A stretch of DNA of 64,000 nt, taken from the NCBI RefSeq assembly GCF_003334815.1, contig NZ_QOWO01000002.1; one strand, written 5' to 3'. This stretch comes from Escherichia coli. GTDB lineage: Bacteria > Pseudomonadota > Gammaproteobacteria > Enterobacterales > Enterobacteriaceae. Made by a program: the position numbers and the translations under genes. Below are positions 22,361 to 51,700 of this stretch, in pieces. The stretch's first letter is position 1. Each line of letters opens with the position of its first letter. The notes below the pieces were generated by a model. That model was not told the DNA's origin, ran no database searches, and saw only the letters and a program-made list of their open reading frames with translations.

Positions 22361-23791
22361 TTAATCTGTGCTTTGTTCTGCCAGTCTGGCGATTTGTTTT
22401 GCCATTCCGCGAAAAATAAACAGATGCGCGGGGATCATCAATAACCAGTAAAACAGCCCCGGCATACCGTGCGGATGCCAGAAAGCGCGGACATCGATAG
22501 TACGATAGTCGCCTTTATCTTCCAGGCTAAAACACAGTCGTCCCAGCCCCGGCGCTTTCATGCCAAATAACAACGTAAGTTGTTTTTCCGGTTCAACGAC
22601 AATCACTTTCCAGCTATCCACCGCATCGCCAGTCTGTAAATATTCGCGCTCCGGGCGGCCTTTCGCCAGCTTATGACCGATCGCGCGGTCCATCAACGCC
22701 CGTGTCTGCCACAAAATATTGCCAAAGAAATAACGCTCTTTACCGCCGATTTGGTTCACTACCTGCCATAAAGCAGCAAGGCTGGCGGACGTTTTAACGG
22801 TAAACCCCGCCTGTTTGGCAAAATAACCGTACTCCGGTCGCCAGCGGGCAAAGGCCTGAGCGTCGTAGCCCCAGTCGCTGGAGTTGACCAGTTTTTCCTC
22901 CTCTTTCAACGTGCTACGTACCGCGTCATCGAAAGCGATCAGCCGTTGTGGGATGAGTGCACGTAGCGCGGTATCATCCGCCAGCAGATCGTGTTTCAGC
23001 CCCTGAATCAACGCCCTGGCGGTGGTGGGCGGTACGGAAGTAATCACATTGAGAAACCACACCGAAATCCAGCGGGTGGGGAGGGGGATGGGGATCAACC
23101 AGCGGCGCTTACCGCTCACCGCCATAAAATGTTCAAACTGTTGCTGATAACTGAGCACCTCTGGTCCGGCGGCTTCGAAGATGCGGTGTTCGCTGGCCGG
23201 ATGATCTAACAACGCAACCAGATAGTGCAGCAAGTTTTCCAGCGCAATGGGCGTGGTGCGTGAACGAACCCAGCGCGGAGGCGTTAAGACTGGCAGGTTG
23301 TAGACCATATCGCGCATGACTTCGAACGCCGCGGAACCTGCGCCAACGATAATTCCGGCCCGCAGTTCGGTCACGGGTACATTCGCTTCACGCAGAATGT
23401 CCGCCGTAGCCTGACGAGCACGCAGATGATCCGACTGCTCATGTGGCGGGGCCTGCAACGAACTAAGAAAGATTAATTGCTTAACTGGTACTTCACGTAG
23501 CGCATCGCGGACGTTGAGAGCCACCTGGCGCTCCTGAGCGATAAAATCGCCGCCTTCGCCCATGCTGTGCACCAGAAAATAGACCGTATCGATATCCTGC
23601 AACAGGGCCGGTAGGTTATCCGGCCAGCTGAGATCGACTTTATGGCAACTGACGTTTGCCAGTTGCAGCTTTGCAAGCCTGTCGACATGACGTGCCGCCG
23701 CCAGGATCTGATGCCCTTGCTGGCTGAGTGTGCGCACCAGATGCTGACCAATGTAGCCACTGGCACCGAGAACTAAAATGCGTTGCGGCAC
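22361..23791 (-). CDS. ybjT: NAD(P)-binding protein YbjT
   Basis: GTG start at 23791 giving [19 protein letters not shown]; last gene of poxB-ltaE-ybjT cluster. Confidence 0.85.
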
Positions 23792-23801
23792 GTCTCTCTC
23801 C

Positions 23802-24803
23802 TTAACGCGCCAGGAATGCACGCCAGTGGGCGGCGACTTCCGCCAGTTGTTCGCGCGAGACGTCAAGATGCGTCACCAGGCGGACAATCGGCGAGGCGTT
23901 AATCAGCACGTTTCTCGCTTTCATGTATTCGCCTAACGCGGCAGCATTTTCTTCCCCGACGCGAACAAACAGCATATTGGTGTCCTGACGCATCACATCC
24001 GCGCCTGCTTCACGCAGCTGCTCCGCCATCCAGGCAGCGTTGTCGTGGTCTTCCTGCAAGCGCGCAACGTTATTTTTCAGGGCATATATCCCGGCGGCAG
24101 CCAGAATGCCGGACTGGCGCATCCCGCCACCTGTCATTTTCCGCCAGCGAATGGCACGTTTAATGTAATCACGATTACCGACGAGTAATGAACCGACTGG
24201 CGTCCCAAGACCTTTCGACAGGCAAATGGTGAACGAATCACAATATTGCGTGATCTCTTTCAGTTCGCAGCCGTAAGCCACCACGGCATTAAAGATGCGC
24301 GCACCGTCAACATGCAGCGCCAGATTGCGCTCGCGGGTAAATTCCCATGCTTCTTTCAGGTATTCCCGCGGCAACACTTTGCCGTTGTGGGTGTTTTCCA
24401 GACTGAGTAATTTGGTGCGGGCGAAATGGATATCGTCGGGTTTGATTTTCATCGCCACTTTATCCAGCGGTAGCGTGCCGTCGGCAGCCGCGTCTATGGG
24501 TTGCGGTTGAATACTGCCCAGCACCGCCGCGCCACCGGCTTCAAACAGATAGTTATGCGCGGCCTGACCGACAATATACTCTTCGCCGCGTTCGCAGTGA
24601 CTGAGCAGAGCGACCAGGTTGGCCTGAGTGCCGGTAGGCAGAAAAATGGCGGCTTCTTTACCGGAAAGCTCTGCTGCGTAGTCCTGCAGAGCATTAACGG
24701 TAGGGTCGTCTCCGTAAACGTCGTCCCCAACCGGGGCGGCCATCATCGCTTCGAGCATGGCGCGGCTTGGTCGGGTAACGGTATCACTGCGTAAATCAAT
24801 CAT
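23802..24803 (-). CDS. ltaE: Low-specificity L-threonine aldolase LtaE
   Basis: 333-aa [42 protein letters not shown]... Confidence 0.95.
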
Positions 24804-38421: not shown

Positions 38422-38742
38422 ATGGGTAAAACGAACGACTGGCTGGACTTTGATCAACTGGCGGAAGAAAAAGTTCGCGACGCGCTAAAACCGCCATCTA
38501 TGTATAAAGTGATATTAGTCAATGATGATTACACTCCGATGGAGTTTGTTATTGACGTGTTACAAAAATTCTTTTCTTATGATGTAGAACGTGCAACGCA
38601 ATTGATGCTCGCTGTTCACTACCAGGGGAAGGCCATTTGCGGAGTCTTTACCGCCGAGGTTGCAGAAACCAAAGTGGCGATGGTGAACAAGTACGCGAGG
38701 GAGAATGAGCATCCATTGCTGTGTACGCTAGAAAAAGCCTGA
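38422..38742 (+). CDS. clpS: ClpA adaptor ClpS
   Basis: 106-aa [20 protein letters not shown]... Confidence 0.95.
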
Positions 38743-38772: not shown

Positions 38773-41049
38773 ATGCTCAATCAAGAACTGGAACTCAGTT
38801 TAAATATGGCTTTCGCCAGAGCGCGCGAGCACCGTCATGAGTTTATGACCGTCGAGCACTTGTTACTGGCGCTGCTCAGTAACCCATCTGCCCGGGAGGC
38901 GCTGGAAGCGTGTTCTGTGGATTTGGTTGCGCTCCGTCAGGAACTGGAAGCCTTTATTGAACAAACCACACCCGTTCTGCCTGCCAGTGAAGAGGAGCGC
39001 GACACACAGCCGACGCTGAGTTTTCAGCGTGTACTGCAACGTGCGGTCTTCCATGTCCAGTCCTCCGGTCGCAATGAGGTTACCGGTGCAAACGTTCTGG
39101 TCGCTATCTTTAGCGAACAGGAGTCGCAGGCGGCATATCTGTTGCGTAAACATGAAGTCAGCCGTCTCGATGTGGTGAACTTTATCTCTCATGGCACGCG
39201 TAAAGACGAGCCGACACAGTCTTCTGATCCTGGCAGCCAGCCAAACAGCGAAGAACAAGCTGGTGGGGAGGAACGTATGGAGAATTTCACGACGAACCTG
39301 AATCAGCTTGCGCGCGTGGGCGGAATCGACCCACTGATTGGTCGTGAGAAGGAGCTGGAGCGTGCTATTCAGGTTCTCTGCCGTCGCCGTAAAAACAACC
39401 CGCTGCTGGTGGGGGAATCTGGTGTCGGTAAAACCGCGATTGCGGAAGGTCTTGCCTGGCGAATTGTTCAGGGCGATGTGCCGGAAGTGATGGCTGACTG
39501 TACGATTTACTCTCTCGATATCGGTTCTCTGTTAGCGGGCACAAAATATCGCGGCGACTTTGAAAAACGTTTTAAAGCGTTGCTCAAGCAGCTGGAGCAG
39601 GACACTAACAGCATCCTGTTTATTGATGAGATCCACACCATTATCGGTGCGGGTGCAGCGTCTGGTGGTCAGGTCGATGCGGCTAACCTAATCAAACCGT
39701 TGCTCTCCAGCGGTAAAATTCGTGTAATTGGTTCGACAACCTATCAGGAGTTCAGCAACATTTTCGAGAAAGACCGTGCTCTGGCGCGTCGCTTCCAGAA
39801 AATTGATATTACTGAACCGTCGATCGAAGAAACTGTTCAAATCATCAATGGCCTGAAACCGAAGTATGAAGCGCACCACGACGTGCGTTATACCGCAAAA
39901 GCGGTGCGTGCGGCGGTAGAGCTGGCGGTGAAATACATTAACGATCGTCATCTGCCGGATAAAGCCATTGATGTTATCGACGAAGCGGGCGCTCGCGCAC
40001 GCCTGATGCCGGTAAGCAAACGCAAGAAAACCGTTAATGTGGCGGATATTGAGTCCGTGGTGGCCCGTATTGCACGCATTCCAGAGAAGAGTGTTTCTCA
40101 GAGTGATCGTGATACCCTGAAAAACCTCGGCGATCGCTTGAAAATGCTGGTCTTCGGTCAGGATAAAGCCATTGAGGCGCTGACTGAAGCCATTAAGATG
40201 GCGCGTGCAGGTTTAGGTCACGAACATAAACCGGTTGGTTCGTTCCTGTTTGCCGGCCCTACCGGGGTCGGGAAAACAGAGGTGACGGTACAGCTTTCGA
40301 AAGCTTTGGGCATTGAGCTTCTGCGCTTTGATATGTCCGAGTATATGGAACGCCATACCGTCAGCCGTCTTATTGGTGCGCCTCCGGGATACGTTGGTTT
40401 TGATCAGGGCGGTTTGCTGACTGATGCGGTCATCAAGCATCCACATGCGGTGCTGCTGCTGGACGAAATCGAGAAAGCGCACCCGGACGTGTTCAATATT
40501 CTGTTGCAGGTGATGGATAACGGTACGCTGACCGATAACAACGGACGCAAAGCAGACTTCCGTAACGTGGTGCTGGTGATGACCACCAACGCCGGGGTAC
40601 GGGAAACTGAGCGCAAATCCATTGGTCTTATCCACCAGGATAACAGCACCGATGCGATGGAAGAGATCAAGAAGATCTTTACACCGGAATTCCGTAACCG
40701 TCTCGACAACATTATCTGGTTTGATCATCTGTCAACCGACGTGATCCATCAGGTGGTGGATAAATTCATCGTCGAGTTGCAGGTTCAGCTGGATCAGAAA
40801 GGTGTTTCTCTGGAAGTGAGCCAGGAAGCGCGTAACTGGCTGGCCGAGAAAGGTTACGACCGGGCAATGGGCGCTCGTCCGATGGCGCGTGTCATCCAGG
40901 ACAACCTGAAAAAACCGCTCGCCAACGAACTGCTGTTTGGTTCGCTGGTGGACGGCGGTCAGGTCACCGTCGCGCTGGATAAAGAGAAAAATGAGCTGAC
41001 TTACGGATTCCAGAGTGCACAAAAGCACAAGGCGGAAGCAGCGCATTAA
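38773..41049 (+). CDS. clpA: ATP-dependent Clp protease ATPase subunit ClpA
   Basis: 758-aa ORF from ATG 38773 ([14 protein letters not shown]...); two AAA+ modules ([16 protein letters not shown]). Confidence 0.95.
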
Positions 41050-41261: not shown

Positions 41262-41349
41262 GTTCACTGCCGTACAGGCAGCTTAGAAATTCACAGGTAA
41301 CATACTCCACCCGCCCACCATGTTCACTGCCGTACAGACAGATAAAATG
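41262..41349 (+). CRISPR. Orphan type I-F CRISPR remnant: 2 repeats, 1 spacer, no cas genes
   Basis: 28-nt repeat GTTCACTGCCGTACAGGCAGCTTAGAAA (41262-41289), 32-nt spacer TTCACAGGTAACATACTCCACCCGCCCACCAT (41290-41321), degenerate terminal repeat GTTCACTGCCGTACAGACAGATAAAATG (41322-41349). Confidence 0.8.
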
Positions 41350-41733: not shown

Positions 41734-41955
<222 letters not shown>

Positions 41956-42236
41956 ATCCTCTGGGGTATCACTACCGTAATTTGAACCGGCAAGATAATG
42001 CCGAAGTTCTGTAAATAAGTAAAGATTTGCGCGCTAAATCGCAACAAACAGGTTCGGCACATTACTCCGAAAACACACGGCTAAGCCGCACCAAAAGCGC
42101 AACGTATAAGGGAGCGGTGAGATAAACGATGGGCGTTACCTGACGCGAAAAATTCCTTATCGGCAGCGGGGTAATGAGCGTAACCAACTCTGCGACCGCA
42201 ATTATAACACTCTGGGGAGAAATGTGCCGAAAACAT

Positions 42237-42941
42237 TCATTCTTGTGGTGAAAACAAGCATCGTGGTACCCAGAAATTATTCGGCAATCGTCCGAGGCGC
42301 ATTTGATTGAGATAATTAAGGTAATCCCGGCGGGGAATTTCGCAGGCACCAAGCGATGCTGTGTGATCGTTAAGGACCTGGCAGTCGATAAGCTTACCGC
42401 CATGACCGATAAATTCCTCACAGAATACCAGAAGCGCCGTTTTAGACGCATTTTCCATCCGGCTGAACATGGACTCGCCACAAAATAGCGTTCCCTGGGC
42501 CACGCCGTACATACCGCCGACAAGCTCATCTTCACGCCAGACTTCAATGGCGTGGGCATGGCCGAGTTCGTGAAGGCGATGGTAGGCTTCGACCACGCCA
42601 CGCGTGATCCAGGTTCCTTCTTCGCGATCGCTGGCACAGCCTTCAATGACCTGACCAAAAGCGTAATTCATCGTGACACGATAGGGCGAGCGTTTATGAA
42701 ATCGCTTCATACTACGGCTGATATGCAGTGATTCTGGCCATAGCACCGCGCGGGGATCGGGCGACCACCAGAGGATGGGGTCGCCTGGAGAAAACTACGG
42801 AAAAATACCACGCTGGTAAGCCATTAACAGGCGCGCAGGGCTAAGATCGCCCCCAAGTGCCAGCAGGCCGTTAGGCTCACGTAATGCGCCTTCCGGGGAA
42901 GGGAAGGCTATTGAATGGCGAGAAAGCTGAACCAGGCGCAT
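42237..42941 (-). pseudogene. aat: Leucyl/phenylalanyl-tRNA-protein transferase (aat) interrupted by in-frame TAG at codon 49
   Basis: From ATG 42941 the frame reads [74 protein letters not shown]...; stop at 42795-42797 where a Trp codon is expected; rest of the 234-codon frame is intact. Confidence 0.8.
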
Positions 42942-42982: not shown

Positions 42983-44704
42983 TTACAAACCCTGCTTGAA
43001 CTGGTAATAACGCCCCTGTCTGGCAAGCAGTTCTGCGTGAGTACCTTGCTCAATAATTTGCCCGTTGTCCATCACTATTATTTGTTGGAAACGAGAGAGT
43101 CCGCGAAGTCGATGGGTGACCATTAACACCGTTTTCTCACGCATCATTTCTGCAAGCAATTCAAGGATCTGGCTTTCGGTTGTGGCATCTAAGCCTTCGG
43201 TAGGTTCATCCAGCAACACCAGTGGCGCATCATGTAACAGCGCACGGGCGATAGCCAGACGGCGCAGTTCACCACCGGAGAGCTGGCGTCCGCCTTCACC
43301 TAACCAACTGTTGAGACCTGCATCCTCGAGCAGCTTTTCCAGGCCAACGCGACGCAAGATCTCCGACAGAGCCTCATCACTACTGCCAGGCGAGGCGAGT
43401 AAAAGATTATCACGCAGCGTGGCGCTAAACAGATGCACTCGCTGAGGAACAACGCTGATGGTCTGTCGTAGAGCCGCTTCATTCAGGCTGGCTATGGGGC
43501 TATCGTTAAGCAAAATCTCGCCCTGTTGCGGGTCCCATGCGCGGGTCAGCAGTTGTAACAGTGTTGATTTGCCGCATCCGGTTCGCCCGAGAATCGCTAT
43601 ATGTTCCCCGGCGTTTACCTGAAGAGAAATCCCTTTAAGTGCCTGTTGAGATTGCTCCGGATAAGTGAACTGAACATCCCGTAACGTCAGCGAAACGCGA
43701 TCGGCAACACGAGTTTGGGTATCAGGAAAGGTGACCTCCGGTTTTTGATCCGTTAAGTCAGAGATACGTACGGCAGAGGCAATGACTTGCCCCAGATGCT
43801 GAAATGCACCCGTTACTGGTGCCAGTGCTTCAAACGCGGCTAACGCGCAGAAGACAAACAGGGCAATTAACGCGCCGGGTTGAGCATTGCCGCCAACGCC
43901 GCCAGACGCCATCCACAGCATCAGGATCACCGCTAACGCGCCAATGAGCAGCATTATCGCTTGCGACAATGCGGTCAGTTCAGATTGACGGCGTTGCGCT
44001 TCCAGCCATTGAATTTCTGTATTCTCTAGTTGCGTGCGATAACGATCGCTGGCACCAAAAATGGTCAGCTCAGCTTGCCCTTGCAGCCAGGCCGTCAGTT
44101 GTTGGCGATACTGTCCGCGAAGATGAGTCAGATTTTGCCCGGTGCTTTTTCCCGCACGATAAAACAGCGGTGGCATCAAGAAAAGCGTCAGTAACATAAT
44201 GCCGCCCAGCGTAAAGGCGAGGGTGAAATCAAGGAAACTTAACCCGATTGTCACCACCATAATCACCACAAAAGCGCCCACCAGCGGCGAGATAACGCGC
44301 AGGTAAAGATGATCGAGCGTATCAACATCCGCCACCACGCGATTGAGCAATTCGCCCTGACGATAGCGCGCCAGTCCGGCAGGGGAGAGGGGCAGCAATT
44401 TGCTGAAGGTGTAAATGCGCAGATGCTGCAACACGCGGAAAGTCGCGTCGTGACTTACCAGACGTTCAAAATAGCGCCCGGCAGTACGGGTGATTGCTGC
44501 GCCACGCACGCCCGCAGCGGGTAGCATATAGTTGAAGCTGTACAGTCCGGCAACCCCCGCAACCGCTGAGGCCGAGAGGAACCAGCCGGAAAGTGTCAAC
44601 AGACCGATACTGGCGAGCAGCGTCACAATTGCCAGCACAATACCAAGACTTAACATCCATTTATGACGTTTATACAGTGCCAGATAGGGTAGCAAAGCGC
44701 GCAT
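42983..44704 (-). CDS. cydC: Cysteine/glutathione ABC exporter subunit CydC
   Basis: 573-aa ORF, N-terminal TMD + C-terminal ABC ATPase (GRTGCGKST); abuts cydD stop. Confidence 0.95.
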   Translation of the reverse strand: MRALLPYLALYKRHKWMLSLGIVLAIVTLLASIGLLTLSGWFLSASAVAGVAGLYSFNYMLPAAGVRGAAITRTAGRYFERLVSHDATFRVLQHLRIYTFSKLLPLSPAGLARYRQGELLNRVVADVDTLDHLYLRVISPLVGAFVVIMVVTIGLSFLDFTLAFTLGGIMLLTLFLMPPLFYRAGKSTGQNLTHLRGQYRQQLTAWLQGQAELTIFGASDRYRTQLENTEIQWLEAQRRQSELTALSQAIMLLIGALAVILMLWMASGGVGGNAQPGALIALFVFCALAAFEALAPVTGAFQHLGQVIASAVRISDLTDQKPEVTFPDTQTRVADRVSLTLRDVQFTYPEQSQQALKGISLQVNAGEHIAILGRTGCGKSTLLQLLTRAWDPQQGEILLNDSPIASLNEAALRQTISVVPQRVHLFSATLRDNLLLASPGSSDEALSEILRRVGLEKLLEDAGLNSWLGEGGRQLSGGELRRLAIARALLHDAPLVLLDEPTEGLDATTESQILELLAEMMREKTVLMVTHRLRGLSRFQQIIVMDNGQIIEQGTHAELLARQGRYYQFKQGL

Positions 44705-48732: not shown

Positions 48733-51700
48733 TTGAGCCAGGAATACACTGAAGACAAAGAAGTCACATTGACAAAGTTAAGTAGCGGCCGCCGCCTTCT
48801 GGAGGCGTTGCTGATCCTTATTGTCCTGTTTGCCGTCTGGTTGATGGCTGCCTTACTAAGCTTTAACCCTTCGGACCCCAGCTGGTCGCAAACGGCCTGG
48901 CATGAACCTATCCATAATTTAGGTGGGATGCCCGGTGCGTGGTTGGCAGATACGCTGTTCTTTATTTTTGGCGTGATGGCTTACACCATTCCCGTCATTA
49001 TTGTCGGCGGTTGTTGGTTTGCCTGGCGTCATCAGTCCAGCGACGAATACATTGATTATTTTGCCGTTTCGCTACGCATCATTGGCGTTTTGGCGCTCAT
49101 CCTTACCTCCTGTGGTCTGGCGGCAATCAACGCTGACGATATCTGGTATTTTGCCTCCGGTGGCGTCATTGGCAGCTTACTAAGCACTACGCTACAACCA
49201 CTGCTACACAGTAGCGGGGGAACTATTGCGCTGCTCTGCGTTTGGGCAGCGGGCCTGACGTTGTTCACCGGTTGGTCATGGGTGACCATTGCTGAAAAAC
49301 TCGGCGGCTGGATTTTAAACATTCTCACCTTCGCCAGTAATCGTACCCGTCGCGATGATACCTGGGTCGATGAAGATGAGTATGAAGACGACGAAGAGTA
49401 TGAAGATGAAAATCACGGCAAACAGCATGAATCACGCCGTGCCCGTATTCTTCGCGGCGCGCTAGCGCGTCGTAAACGGTTGGCGGAAAAATTCATTAAT
49501 CCGATGGGGCGGCAAACAGACGCTGCGTTGTTCTCCGGTAAGCGGATGGATGATGACGAAGAGATTACCTACACTGCACGCGGTGTGGCTGCCGACCCGG
49601 ACGACGTCCTATTTTCGGGCAATCGTGCAACGCAGCCAGAATATGACGAATACGATCCATTATTAAACGGTGCGCCAATTACCGAACCTGTCGCTGTAGC
49701 AGCTGCTGCTACCACGGCGACACAAAGCTGGGCTGCGCCGGTTGAACCTGTGACTCAGACGCCGCCTGTTGCCTCTGTTGATGTTCCACCTGCGCAACCT
49801 ACAGTAGCCTGGCAGCCTGTACCGGGTCCACAAACGGGAGAGCCGGTTATTGCTCCTGCACCGGAAGGTTACCCACAGCAGTCACAATATGCGCAGCCTG
49901 CAGTGCAATATAATGAGCCGCTGCAACAACCAGTACAGCCGCAGCAGCCGTATTATGCACCTGCAGCTGAACAACCTGCGCAACAGCCGTATTATGCCCC
50001 TGCGCCAGAACAACCGGTGGCAGGTAACGCCTGGCAAGCCGAAGAGCAGCAATCCACTTTTGCTCCACAGTCTACATACCAGACTGAGCAAACTTATCAG
50101 CAGCCAGCCGCTCAGGAGCCGTTGTACCAACAGCCGCAACCCGTTGAACAGCAGCCTGTTGTGGAGCCTGAACCCGTTGTAGAAGAGACAAAACCCGCGC
50201 GTCCGCCGCTTTACTACTTTGAAGAAGTTGAAGAGAAGCGAGCCCGTGAACGTGAACAACTTGCGGCCTGGTATCAACCGATTCCAGAACCGGTTAAAGA
50301 ACCAGAACCGATCAAATCTTCGCTGAAAGCACCTTCTGTTGCAGCAGTACCTCCAGTAGAAGCCGCTGCCGCTGTTTCCCCGCTGGCATCTGGCGTGAAA
50401 AAAGCGACACTGGCGACGGGGGCTGCCGCAACCGTTGCCGCGCCAGTCTTCAGTCTGGCAAATAGCGGTGGACCGCGTCCTCAGGTCAAAGAGGGGATTG
50501 GTCCGCAGTTGCCACGACCGAAACGTATCCGCGTGCCAACTCGTCGTGAACTGGCGTCTTACGGTATTAAGCTGCCCTCACAGCGTGCGGCGGAAGAAAA
50601 AGCCCGTGAAGCCCAGCGCAATCAGTACGATTCTGGCGATCAGTACAACGATGATGAAATCGATGCGATGCAGCAGGATGAACTGGCACGTCAGTTCGCC
50701 CAGACACAGCAGCAACGCTATGGCGAACAGTATCAACATGATGTGCCCGTAAACGCAGAAGATGCAGATGCTGCGGCAGAGGCTGAACTGGCTCGTCAGT
50801 TTGCGCAAACTCAACAACAACGTTATTCCGGCGAACAACCGGCTGGGGCGAATCCGTTCTCGCTGGATGATTTTGAATTTTCGCCAATGAAAGCGTTGCT
50901 GGATGATGGTCCACACGAACCGTTGTTTACGCCAATTGTTGAACCTGTACAGCAGCCGCAACAACCGGTTGCACCGCAGCAGCAATATCAGCAGCCGCAA
51001 CAACCAGTTCCGCCGCAGCCGCAGTATCAGCAGCCACAACAGCCGGTTGCGCCGCAGCCACAATATCAGCAGCCGCAACAACCGGTTGCGCCACAGCAGC
51101 AATATCAGCAGCCGCAACAACCGGTTGCGCCGCAGCAGCAGTATCAGCAGCCACAACAGCCAGTTGCGCCACAACCGCAGGATACCCTGCTTCATCCGCT
51201 GTTGATGCGTAATGGCGACAGCCGTCCGTTGCATAAACCGACGACGCCGCTGCCTTCTCTGGATTTGCTGACACCGCCGCCGAGCGAAGTGGAGCCGGTA
51301 GATACCTTTGCGCTTGAACAAATGGCTCGCCTGGTGGAAGCGCGTCTGGCTGATTTCCGTATTAAAGCCGATGTCGTCAATTACTCTCCGGGGCCGGTTA
51401 TCACTCGCTTTGAATTGAACCTGGCACCGGGCGTAAAAGCGGCGCGCATTTCTAACTTGTCACGGGACCTTGCCCGTTCACTTTCGACGGTGGCGGTGCG
51501 TGTCGTTGAAGTTATTCCTGGCAAACCCTATGTAGGTCTGGAGTTACCGAATAAAAAACGACAAACCGTTTATCTGCGCGAAGTTTTGGATAACGCCAAA
51601 TTCCGCGATAATCCGTCGCCATTAACCGTGGTGCTGGGTAAAGATATCGCCGGTGAGCCGGTGGTTGCCGATCTGGCGAAAATGCCGCACTTGTTGGTTG

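Follow-up and report, generated by a model that had tools for sequence, protein, structure and literature searches.

How is one to read an aat gene of Escherichia coli whose otherwise open frame is broken by a single in-frame amber codon? The stretch of DNA analyzed here, a window of 64 kb, carries aat, the gene for leucyl/phenylalanyl-tRNA--protein transferase (L/F-transferase), on the minus strand at 42237..42941, with TAG in the place of Trp49. The original prediction left three possibilities side by side: a strain defective in the N-degron pathway, an amber suppressor that decodes the TAG, or an error in the sequence. We put the probability at roughly 0.85 that this is a genuine, heritable and recent loss-of-function allele, which would make the clone a natural aat null under mutation-selection balance.

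The structure of the frame is simple. Read on the minus strand from the ATG at 42941, translation gives 48 sense codons, the TAG at 42795..42797 (CTA on the plus strand), another 185 sense codons and, at 42237-42239, the usual TGA. Upstream of the TAG lies a 48-residue N-terminal stub ending in GIFP (42798..42941), the only part of aat expected to be translated; downstream of it, codons 50-234 and the normal stop form an open frame (42237..42794) that holds the GNAT-like catalytic part, Q188 and D186 included. The mutated base is 42796, which on the plus strand is T in the window and C in MG1655, 52F4, LR-21-1 and all relatives with Ala131. On the sense strand this is a single G to A change, TGG to TAG, and alignment with MG1655 places TGG at codon 49 there and TAG, in frame, in the window. 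Three RefSeq genomes, which align with the window base for base, have an annotated aat CDS with these same boundaries. When Trp49 is restored, the translation reaches 312.8 bits with the NCBIfam equivalog model TIGR00667 ("aat"), well above the curated cut-off of 143.55, matches Pfam PF03588 over residues 35-203 (E = 5e-71), and differs from the crystallized E. coli L/F-transferase (PDB 2DPS, 2CXA, 2Z3K) only by S131A. The gene also lies where it is expected in Enterobacteriaceae, in the order cydD-cydC-aat-infA next to clpA-clpS. Sequence, translation, RefSeq annotation, TIGR00667 and PDB identity agree in defining a pseudogene by nonsense mutation: a member of the family by its repaired translation, whose domain is interrupted by the TAG. 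The gene name, the codon number, the single G to A change (all intact relatives examined have C at 42796) and the intact run of about 185 downstream codons without decay were all as first proposed.

The lost residue is a conserved one. In an alignment of 51 diverse Aat family members (38-50% identity), Trp occupies position 49 in 49, within a motif G-[IVL]-F-P-W in which G45 (51/51), F47 (49/51) and P48 (51/51) are equally or more constant, upholding the earlier description of a conserved GIFPW motif. The conceptual frame of the window retains G45, P48, W58, W111, E156, D186 and Q188; W49 alone is missing, replaced by the stop. In the enzyme, W49 presumably contacts the aminoacyl-adenosine, and structural work by Suto (2006) reportedly describes the role of this residue. 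The window has a second change at a nearly invariant site: codon 131 (42549..42551, minus strand) is GCC, encoding Ala, where K-12 has Ser and where 50 diverse homologues have Ser (48) or Cys (2). An intact Aat protein with Ala131 is on record from 22 contigs. Because such intact genes exist, S131A predates the TAG, and it serves as a haplotype marker older than the stop.

The same allele is found in other public records. SRR3823859, GCA_965212685.1 and ERR14335422 are indistinguishable from the window, the TAG included, along 4.2-6.4 kb, and all carry both Ala131 and a private cydC SNP at 44179, so that the null allele is seen to be inherited. Since they share this second private SNP, the three records represent one real lineage. 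As the window may itself come from one of them, they count as at least two independent confirmations, not three: one is an SRR run, the other an ERR/GCA record of a different archive. Identical allele and flanks in at least two datasets therefore make a read or assembly error very unlikely. The SRR3823859 contig with the TAG allele was seen in five samples, and a public protein collection contains both the exact 48-residue stub and a C-terminal fragment of 144 residues that has Ala131, the fragment having been annotated by gene callers (e.g. CAM9169114.1). The sequence around the stop is clean as well: over 46 kb (window 18001-64000), comparison with LR-21-1 shows 44 substitutions and no indels, and among 35 window genes compared with that genome aat is the only one with an internal stop. 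A poor-quality assembly is ruled out by this freedom from indels and from a second broken gene. Broken genes in public records are not always real, as the assembly of a relative illustrates: in GCA_900450225.1, single-base insertions (homologous to window 38943, 40929 and 46221) split clpA and shorten cydD, and these probably reflect homopolymer errors in the assembly, not biology.

Comparison with relatives also revealed differences outside aat, which we record as separate observations. Of the 44 substitutions against LR-21-1, 34 fall in 1.4 kb of ybjT/ltaE (23216-24588) and almost all are synonymous, a cluster that looks like a recombination tract within a near-identical backbone. At the left end of the window (1-3600) lie K-12-like ybjI, ybjJ and rcdA-like ORFs and the RybB sRNA (3486-3564) next to ybjL, while LR-21-1 (NZ_AP027487.1) has P2-like prophage genes (ogr, D, tail tape measure) at the ybjL junction; the two arrangements correspond, by their gene content, to an empty and an occupied prophage integration site. 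The ftsK linker (~50950-51183) contains internal repeats in a 39-nt register, with self-matches at 87%. Two close relatives have an ftsK 13 codons shorter (1316 versus 1329 aa), and from this we conclude that repeat number varies among near-identical strains.

How old is the stop? The nearest relative with an intact aat, GCA_037967625.1, differs from the window at 2 of 20,705 bases, 42796 and 44179, both of them G:C to A:T transitions. The second is the synonymous cydC SNP (44179..44179; A on the plus strand, G in relatives), the only other difference over these 20.7 kb. Because the nearest intact relative differs by two bases only, the TAG must be young. The disabling change is missing from a close relative with an intact orthologue, as expected of a recent pseudogene, and no further stop or indel was seen in the window's aat; this lack of further decay fits a very young event. 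The allele is also rare. We searched the 5,426 complete RefSeq E. coli genomes with a 35-nt query that had the SNP at its center, which forces each 28-mer seed to include the mutant base. The TAG form matched none of them, while the same 35-mer with TGG matched 4,108, 3,887 at 100%. No aat identical to that of the window occurs in these 5,426 genomes, all of which possess the gene; the best match, 52F4, differs by TGG only. Taken together, the comparisons place the TAG as a recent tip mutation in a small clone. The background of that clone, judged by its haplotype, is K-12-like (phylogroup-A-type) yet not K-12: three further differences from MG1655 in 6.7 kb are common to wild isolates. The same three differences rule out that the window comes from a K-12 laboratory strain with supE.

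The position of the stop leaves little of the enzyme. Only 14 of the 171 positions of PF03588 remain upstream of the TAG, and the 48-residue stub gave no NCBIfam match. Family-invariant Q188 and near-invariant D186 both lie 3' of it. The stub would therefore lack almost the entire Leu_Phe_trans/GNAT-like domain, and we expect it to have no transferase activity.

We then ask whether codon 49 is in any way special. Stops at W49 occur in at least five backgrounds in total: as TAG in two records of K-12-like E. coli with Ser131, as TGA in two divergent E. coli backgrounds, and as TAG in three separate Klebsiella assemblies. Two control codons behave in the same way, W68 and W111 each having real TAG or TGA stops, checked in the DNA, on nine haplotypes among the ten places listed. 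Counts of N-terminal products give a similar picture, with 161 contigs for products ending before W49 and 53-426 for those ending before Y42, Q43, W58, W59, S60, W68, E70, S71 or W111, although many truncated Aat entries are contig ends. Product lengths that no single-base nonsense change could produce are equally common. One TGA lineage (ERR10765568) has two stops, W49 TGA and Q148 TAG, and its decay is further advanced than elsewhere; all other stop alleles sit on an otherwise undecayed aat. In another sample (ERR13326543) the contig stops right after the TG of codon 49, a pattern that a mixture of TGG and TGA in the sample, branching the assembly graph there, would produce. A mutational or selective hotspot at codon 49 can be rejected, since W68 and W111 show no less diversity of stops and products of many lengths exist. 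Because the collection is very large, a G:C to A:T change at any Trp codon of aat will have been sampled many times. The gene itself is under strong purifying selection, with dN/dS of 0.01-0.08 when E. coli backgrounds are compared with each other and 0.06-0.07 when E. coli is compared with Klebsiella. The stop alleles are thus probably rare, young and mildly deleterious nulls of a dispensable gene.

Four other explanations of the TAG have to be weighed against this reading. Were the base call an artefact, with G as the true base and aat intact, one would expect the allele to be absent from complete RefSeq genomes, as it is; one would not expect it with identical flanks in records of different archives and years (SRR, ERR, GCA), all sharing the private SNP at 44179, or in a window otherwise free of indels and disrupted genes over 46 kb. 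We consider an artefact highly improbable, and of the three options first proposed, sequence error is accordingly disfavored. It is still harder to credit that ribosomes reinitiate 3' of the TAG and that the resulting C-terminal GNAT-like fragment keeps transferase activity. A 169-residue fragment does score 260 bits against TIGR00667, and gene callers do annotate the 144-residue fragment in TAG records. However, Shine-Dalgarno pairing is absent at all three in-frame restart candidates, GTG 42746 (codon 66), ATG 42710 (codon 78) and ATG 42671 (codon 91), with values of -2.2, +0.6 and +0.6 kcal/mol, respectively, as compared with -5.9 at the aat start, -5.8 at infA, -10.3 at cydC and a background of -2.7 +/- 2.3 kcal/mol. 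Moreover, the alignments of 150 diverse representatives begin, in essentially all cases, near residue 10-13, the few family members that start at residue 40 still cover W49, and the part that a restart would omit holds the invariant or near-invariant P14, Y42, G45, P48, W49 and W58. We reject a functional restart fragment on the missing pairing and on the architecture of the family. Decoding of the amber codon, by a suppressor tRNA encoded elsewhere or by high read-through, would yield full-length Aat and is in keeping with the fully open frame 3' of the TAG; such a frame is expected for any young mutation, which weakens this support. An amber suppressor would also read several hundred natural TAG stops, and suppressors are rare in wild isolates. 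The sole tRNA within the 64-kb window is a tRNA-Ser with a normal GGA anticodon (glnV and tyrT lie outside it), and the haplotype is not K-12, so the classic laboratory supE and supF backgrounds are not at issue. In other lineages codon 49 is TGA, or TGA and TAG occur together in one gene, and no single suppressor fits them all. Finally, W49 is 96% conserved, and insertion of another residue, such as Gln or Tyr, may not restore activity. Suppression therefore seems very unlikely, and it need not be invoked, since many isolates have comparable TGA and TAG stops at various places in aat. Natural read-through of UAG at a low level might nevertheless leave a trace of enzyme. Recoding of the pyrrolysine type was set aside, codon 49 being TGA in other lineages; to our knowledge, the Pyl machinery is absent from E. 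coli.

The alternative that accepts the allele as a true null, and differs only in its cause, is that inactivation of aat was positively selected in some condition, such as the host, storage or laboratory passage. Stops at W49 have arisen independently on several backgrounds and in Klebsiella; the Klebsiella TAG is present in three assemblies and the window allele in several samples, so that carriers are not removed at once; and what the pathway does physiologically in E. coli has been described as unclear (bioRxiv 10.1101/2021.07.26.453911). Against this, codon 49 is no more affected than W68 and W111, shortened products, many of them contig ends, are about equally numerous at nearly every length, and in so enormous a collection each possible transition is expected several times. 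The dN/dS of 0.01-0.08 shows that aat is maintained, and of the 4,108 complete genomes that share the local sequence none has the allele. A literature search on selected loss of aat, and on the sample accessions, found no relevant report. We consider adaptive loss unlikely, though less so than the other three explanations. The broader form of the idea is equally doubtful, namely that the Aat branch of the N-degron pathway is subject to recurrent conditional selection in Enterobacteriaceae, of which the W49, W68 and W111 nulls would be a weak signal. If it were true, loss of aat could be advantageous through, for example, stabilized PATase or other Aat-dependent substrates.

The genes around aat bear on how far the defect should reach. 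As first noted, clpS and clpA lie in the same window, a placement borne out by annotation and gene comparison. Both are intact: clpS (38422..38742, plus strand), the N-degron adaptor, and clpA (38773..41049, plus strand), the unfoldase of ClpAP, show no nucleotide difference from LR-21-1. Because of this, only the Aat branch is predicted to be lost. The proposal of an N-degron-defective strain is thus favored for the Aat-dependent branch, which handles secondary destabilizing N-termini, and should not extend to the pathway as a whole, since ClpS and ClpA are identical in protein sequence to the reference. Immediately downstream of aat, the essential infA (IF1; 41734..41952, minus strand) is intact and identical to the reference. 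A promoter-like site, TCGGCA-18-TATAAT with a TG extension, lies between the aat stop and infA (42201..42230, minus strand) and matches the consensus, although one such site against 1.8 expected in shuffled sequences is weak by itself. If the site is real, infA may be transcribed independently of aat. Given this site and the evident viability of carriers, we judge a polar effect on infA to be unlikely.

The interval between clpA and tRNA-Ser contains one further element, an orphan type I-F CRISPR remnant (41262-41349, plus strand). A single canonical repeat of 28 nt, GTTCACTGCCGTACAGGCAGCTTAGAAA (50 bits against Rfam CRISPR-DR4), is accompanied by a spacer of 32 nt and by a second, degenerate repeat, and no cas genes were found near it. 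We take it to be the known clpA-infA vestige of E. coli strains that have no I-F system.

Returning to the preferred reading, a natural aat null, the events can be pictured as follows. A spontaneous G:C to A:T transition would have turned Trp49 TGG into TAG recently in a K-12-like clone, and translation would now end after 48 residues, so that no L/F-transferase is made. Proteins with N-terminal Arg or Lys (in the case of PATase, Met), which need Leu or Phe to be added, would no longer be passed to ClpS-ClpAP; substrates with the primary destabilizing residues Leu, Phe, Trp and Tyr should still be degraded, clpS and clpA being intact. The cell would stay viable, aat being dispensable. At the level of the population, the allele would be one of many rare and short-lived nonsense variants under mutation-selection balance.

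The gene, the locus and the type of lesion are already known, and the allele is in public databases. The clone, as a predicted natural aat null, offers a possible comparison in a wild background for N-degron studies, and annotators should flag its aat as a pseudogene. Rare aat nulls scattered through E. coli and Klebsiella, together with purifying selection, are consistent with a gene that is dispensable but useful. The allele neither opens nor answers a long-standing question about the N-degron pathway in bacteria, and it has little import beyond strain bookkeeping.

It is instructive to compare the window allele with three known systems. The closest is the aat of K-12 (PDB 2DPS, 2DPT, 2CXA, 2Z3K; TIGR00667; PF03588), which has the same length and the same locus, cydC-aat-infA-serW-clpA-clpS; the MG1655 gene is identical at 702 of 705 bases, the stop base and S131A being noted apart. 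Relative to it, the window has TAG for TGG at codon 49 and, at 131, Ala where the family conserves Ser. The other natural aat nulls (stops at W49, W68 and W111 in E. coli, and the W49 TAG of Klebsiella) belong to the same mutational class, G:C to A:T at a Trp codon, and have the same consequence. However, they are independent events on different haplotypes, the window allele being defined by TAG49 together with Ala131 and cydC 44179A. The third comparison is with engineered strains. A delta-aat strain is viable and in routine use, and in it PATase and several other proteins are not delivered to ClpS (bioRxiv 10.1101/2021.07.26.453911). Such laboratory strains are viable and no longer leucylate PATase or the other ClpS ligands that depend on Aat, and by analogy the same phenotype is predicted for the clone. 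The difference lies in origin: the laboratory strains carry an engineered deletion, whereas the clone carries a spontaneous point mutation in the background of a wild-type-like isolate.
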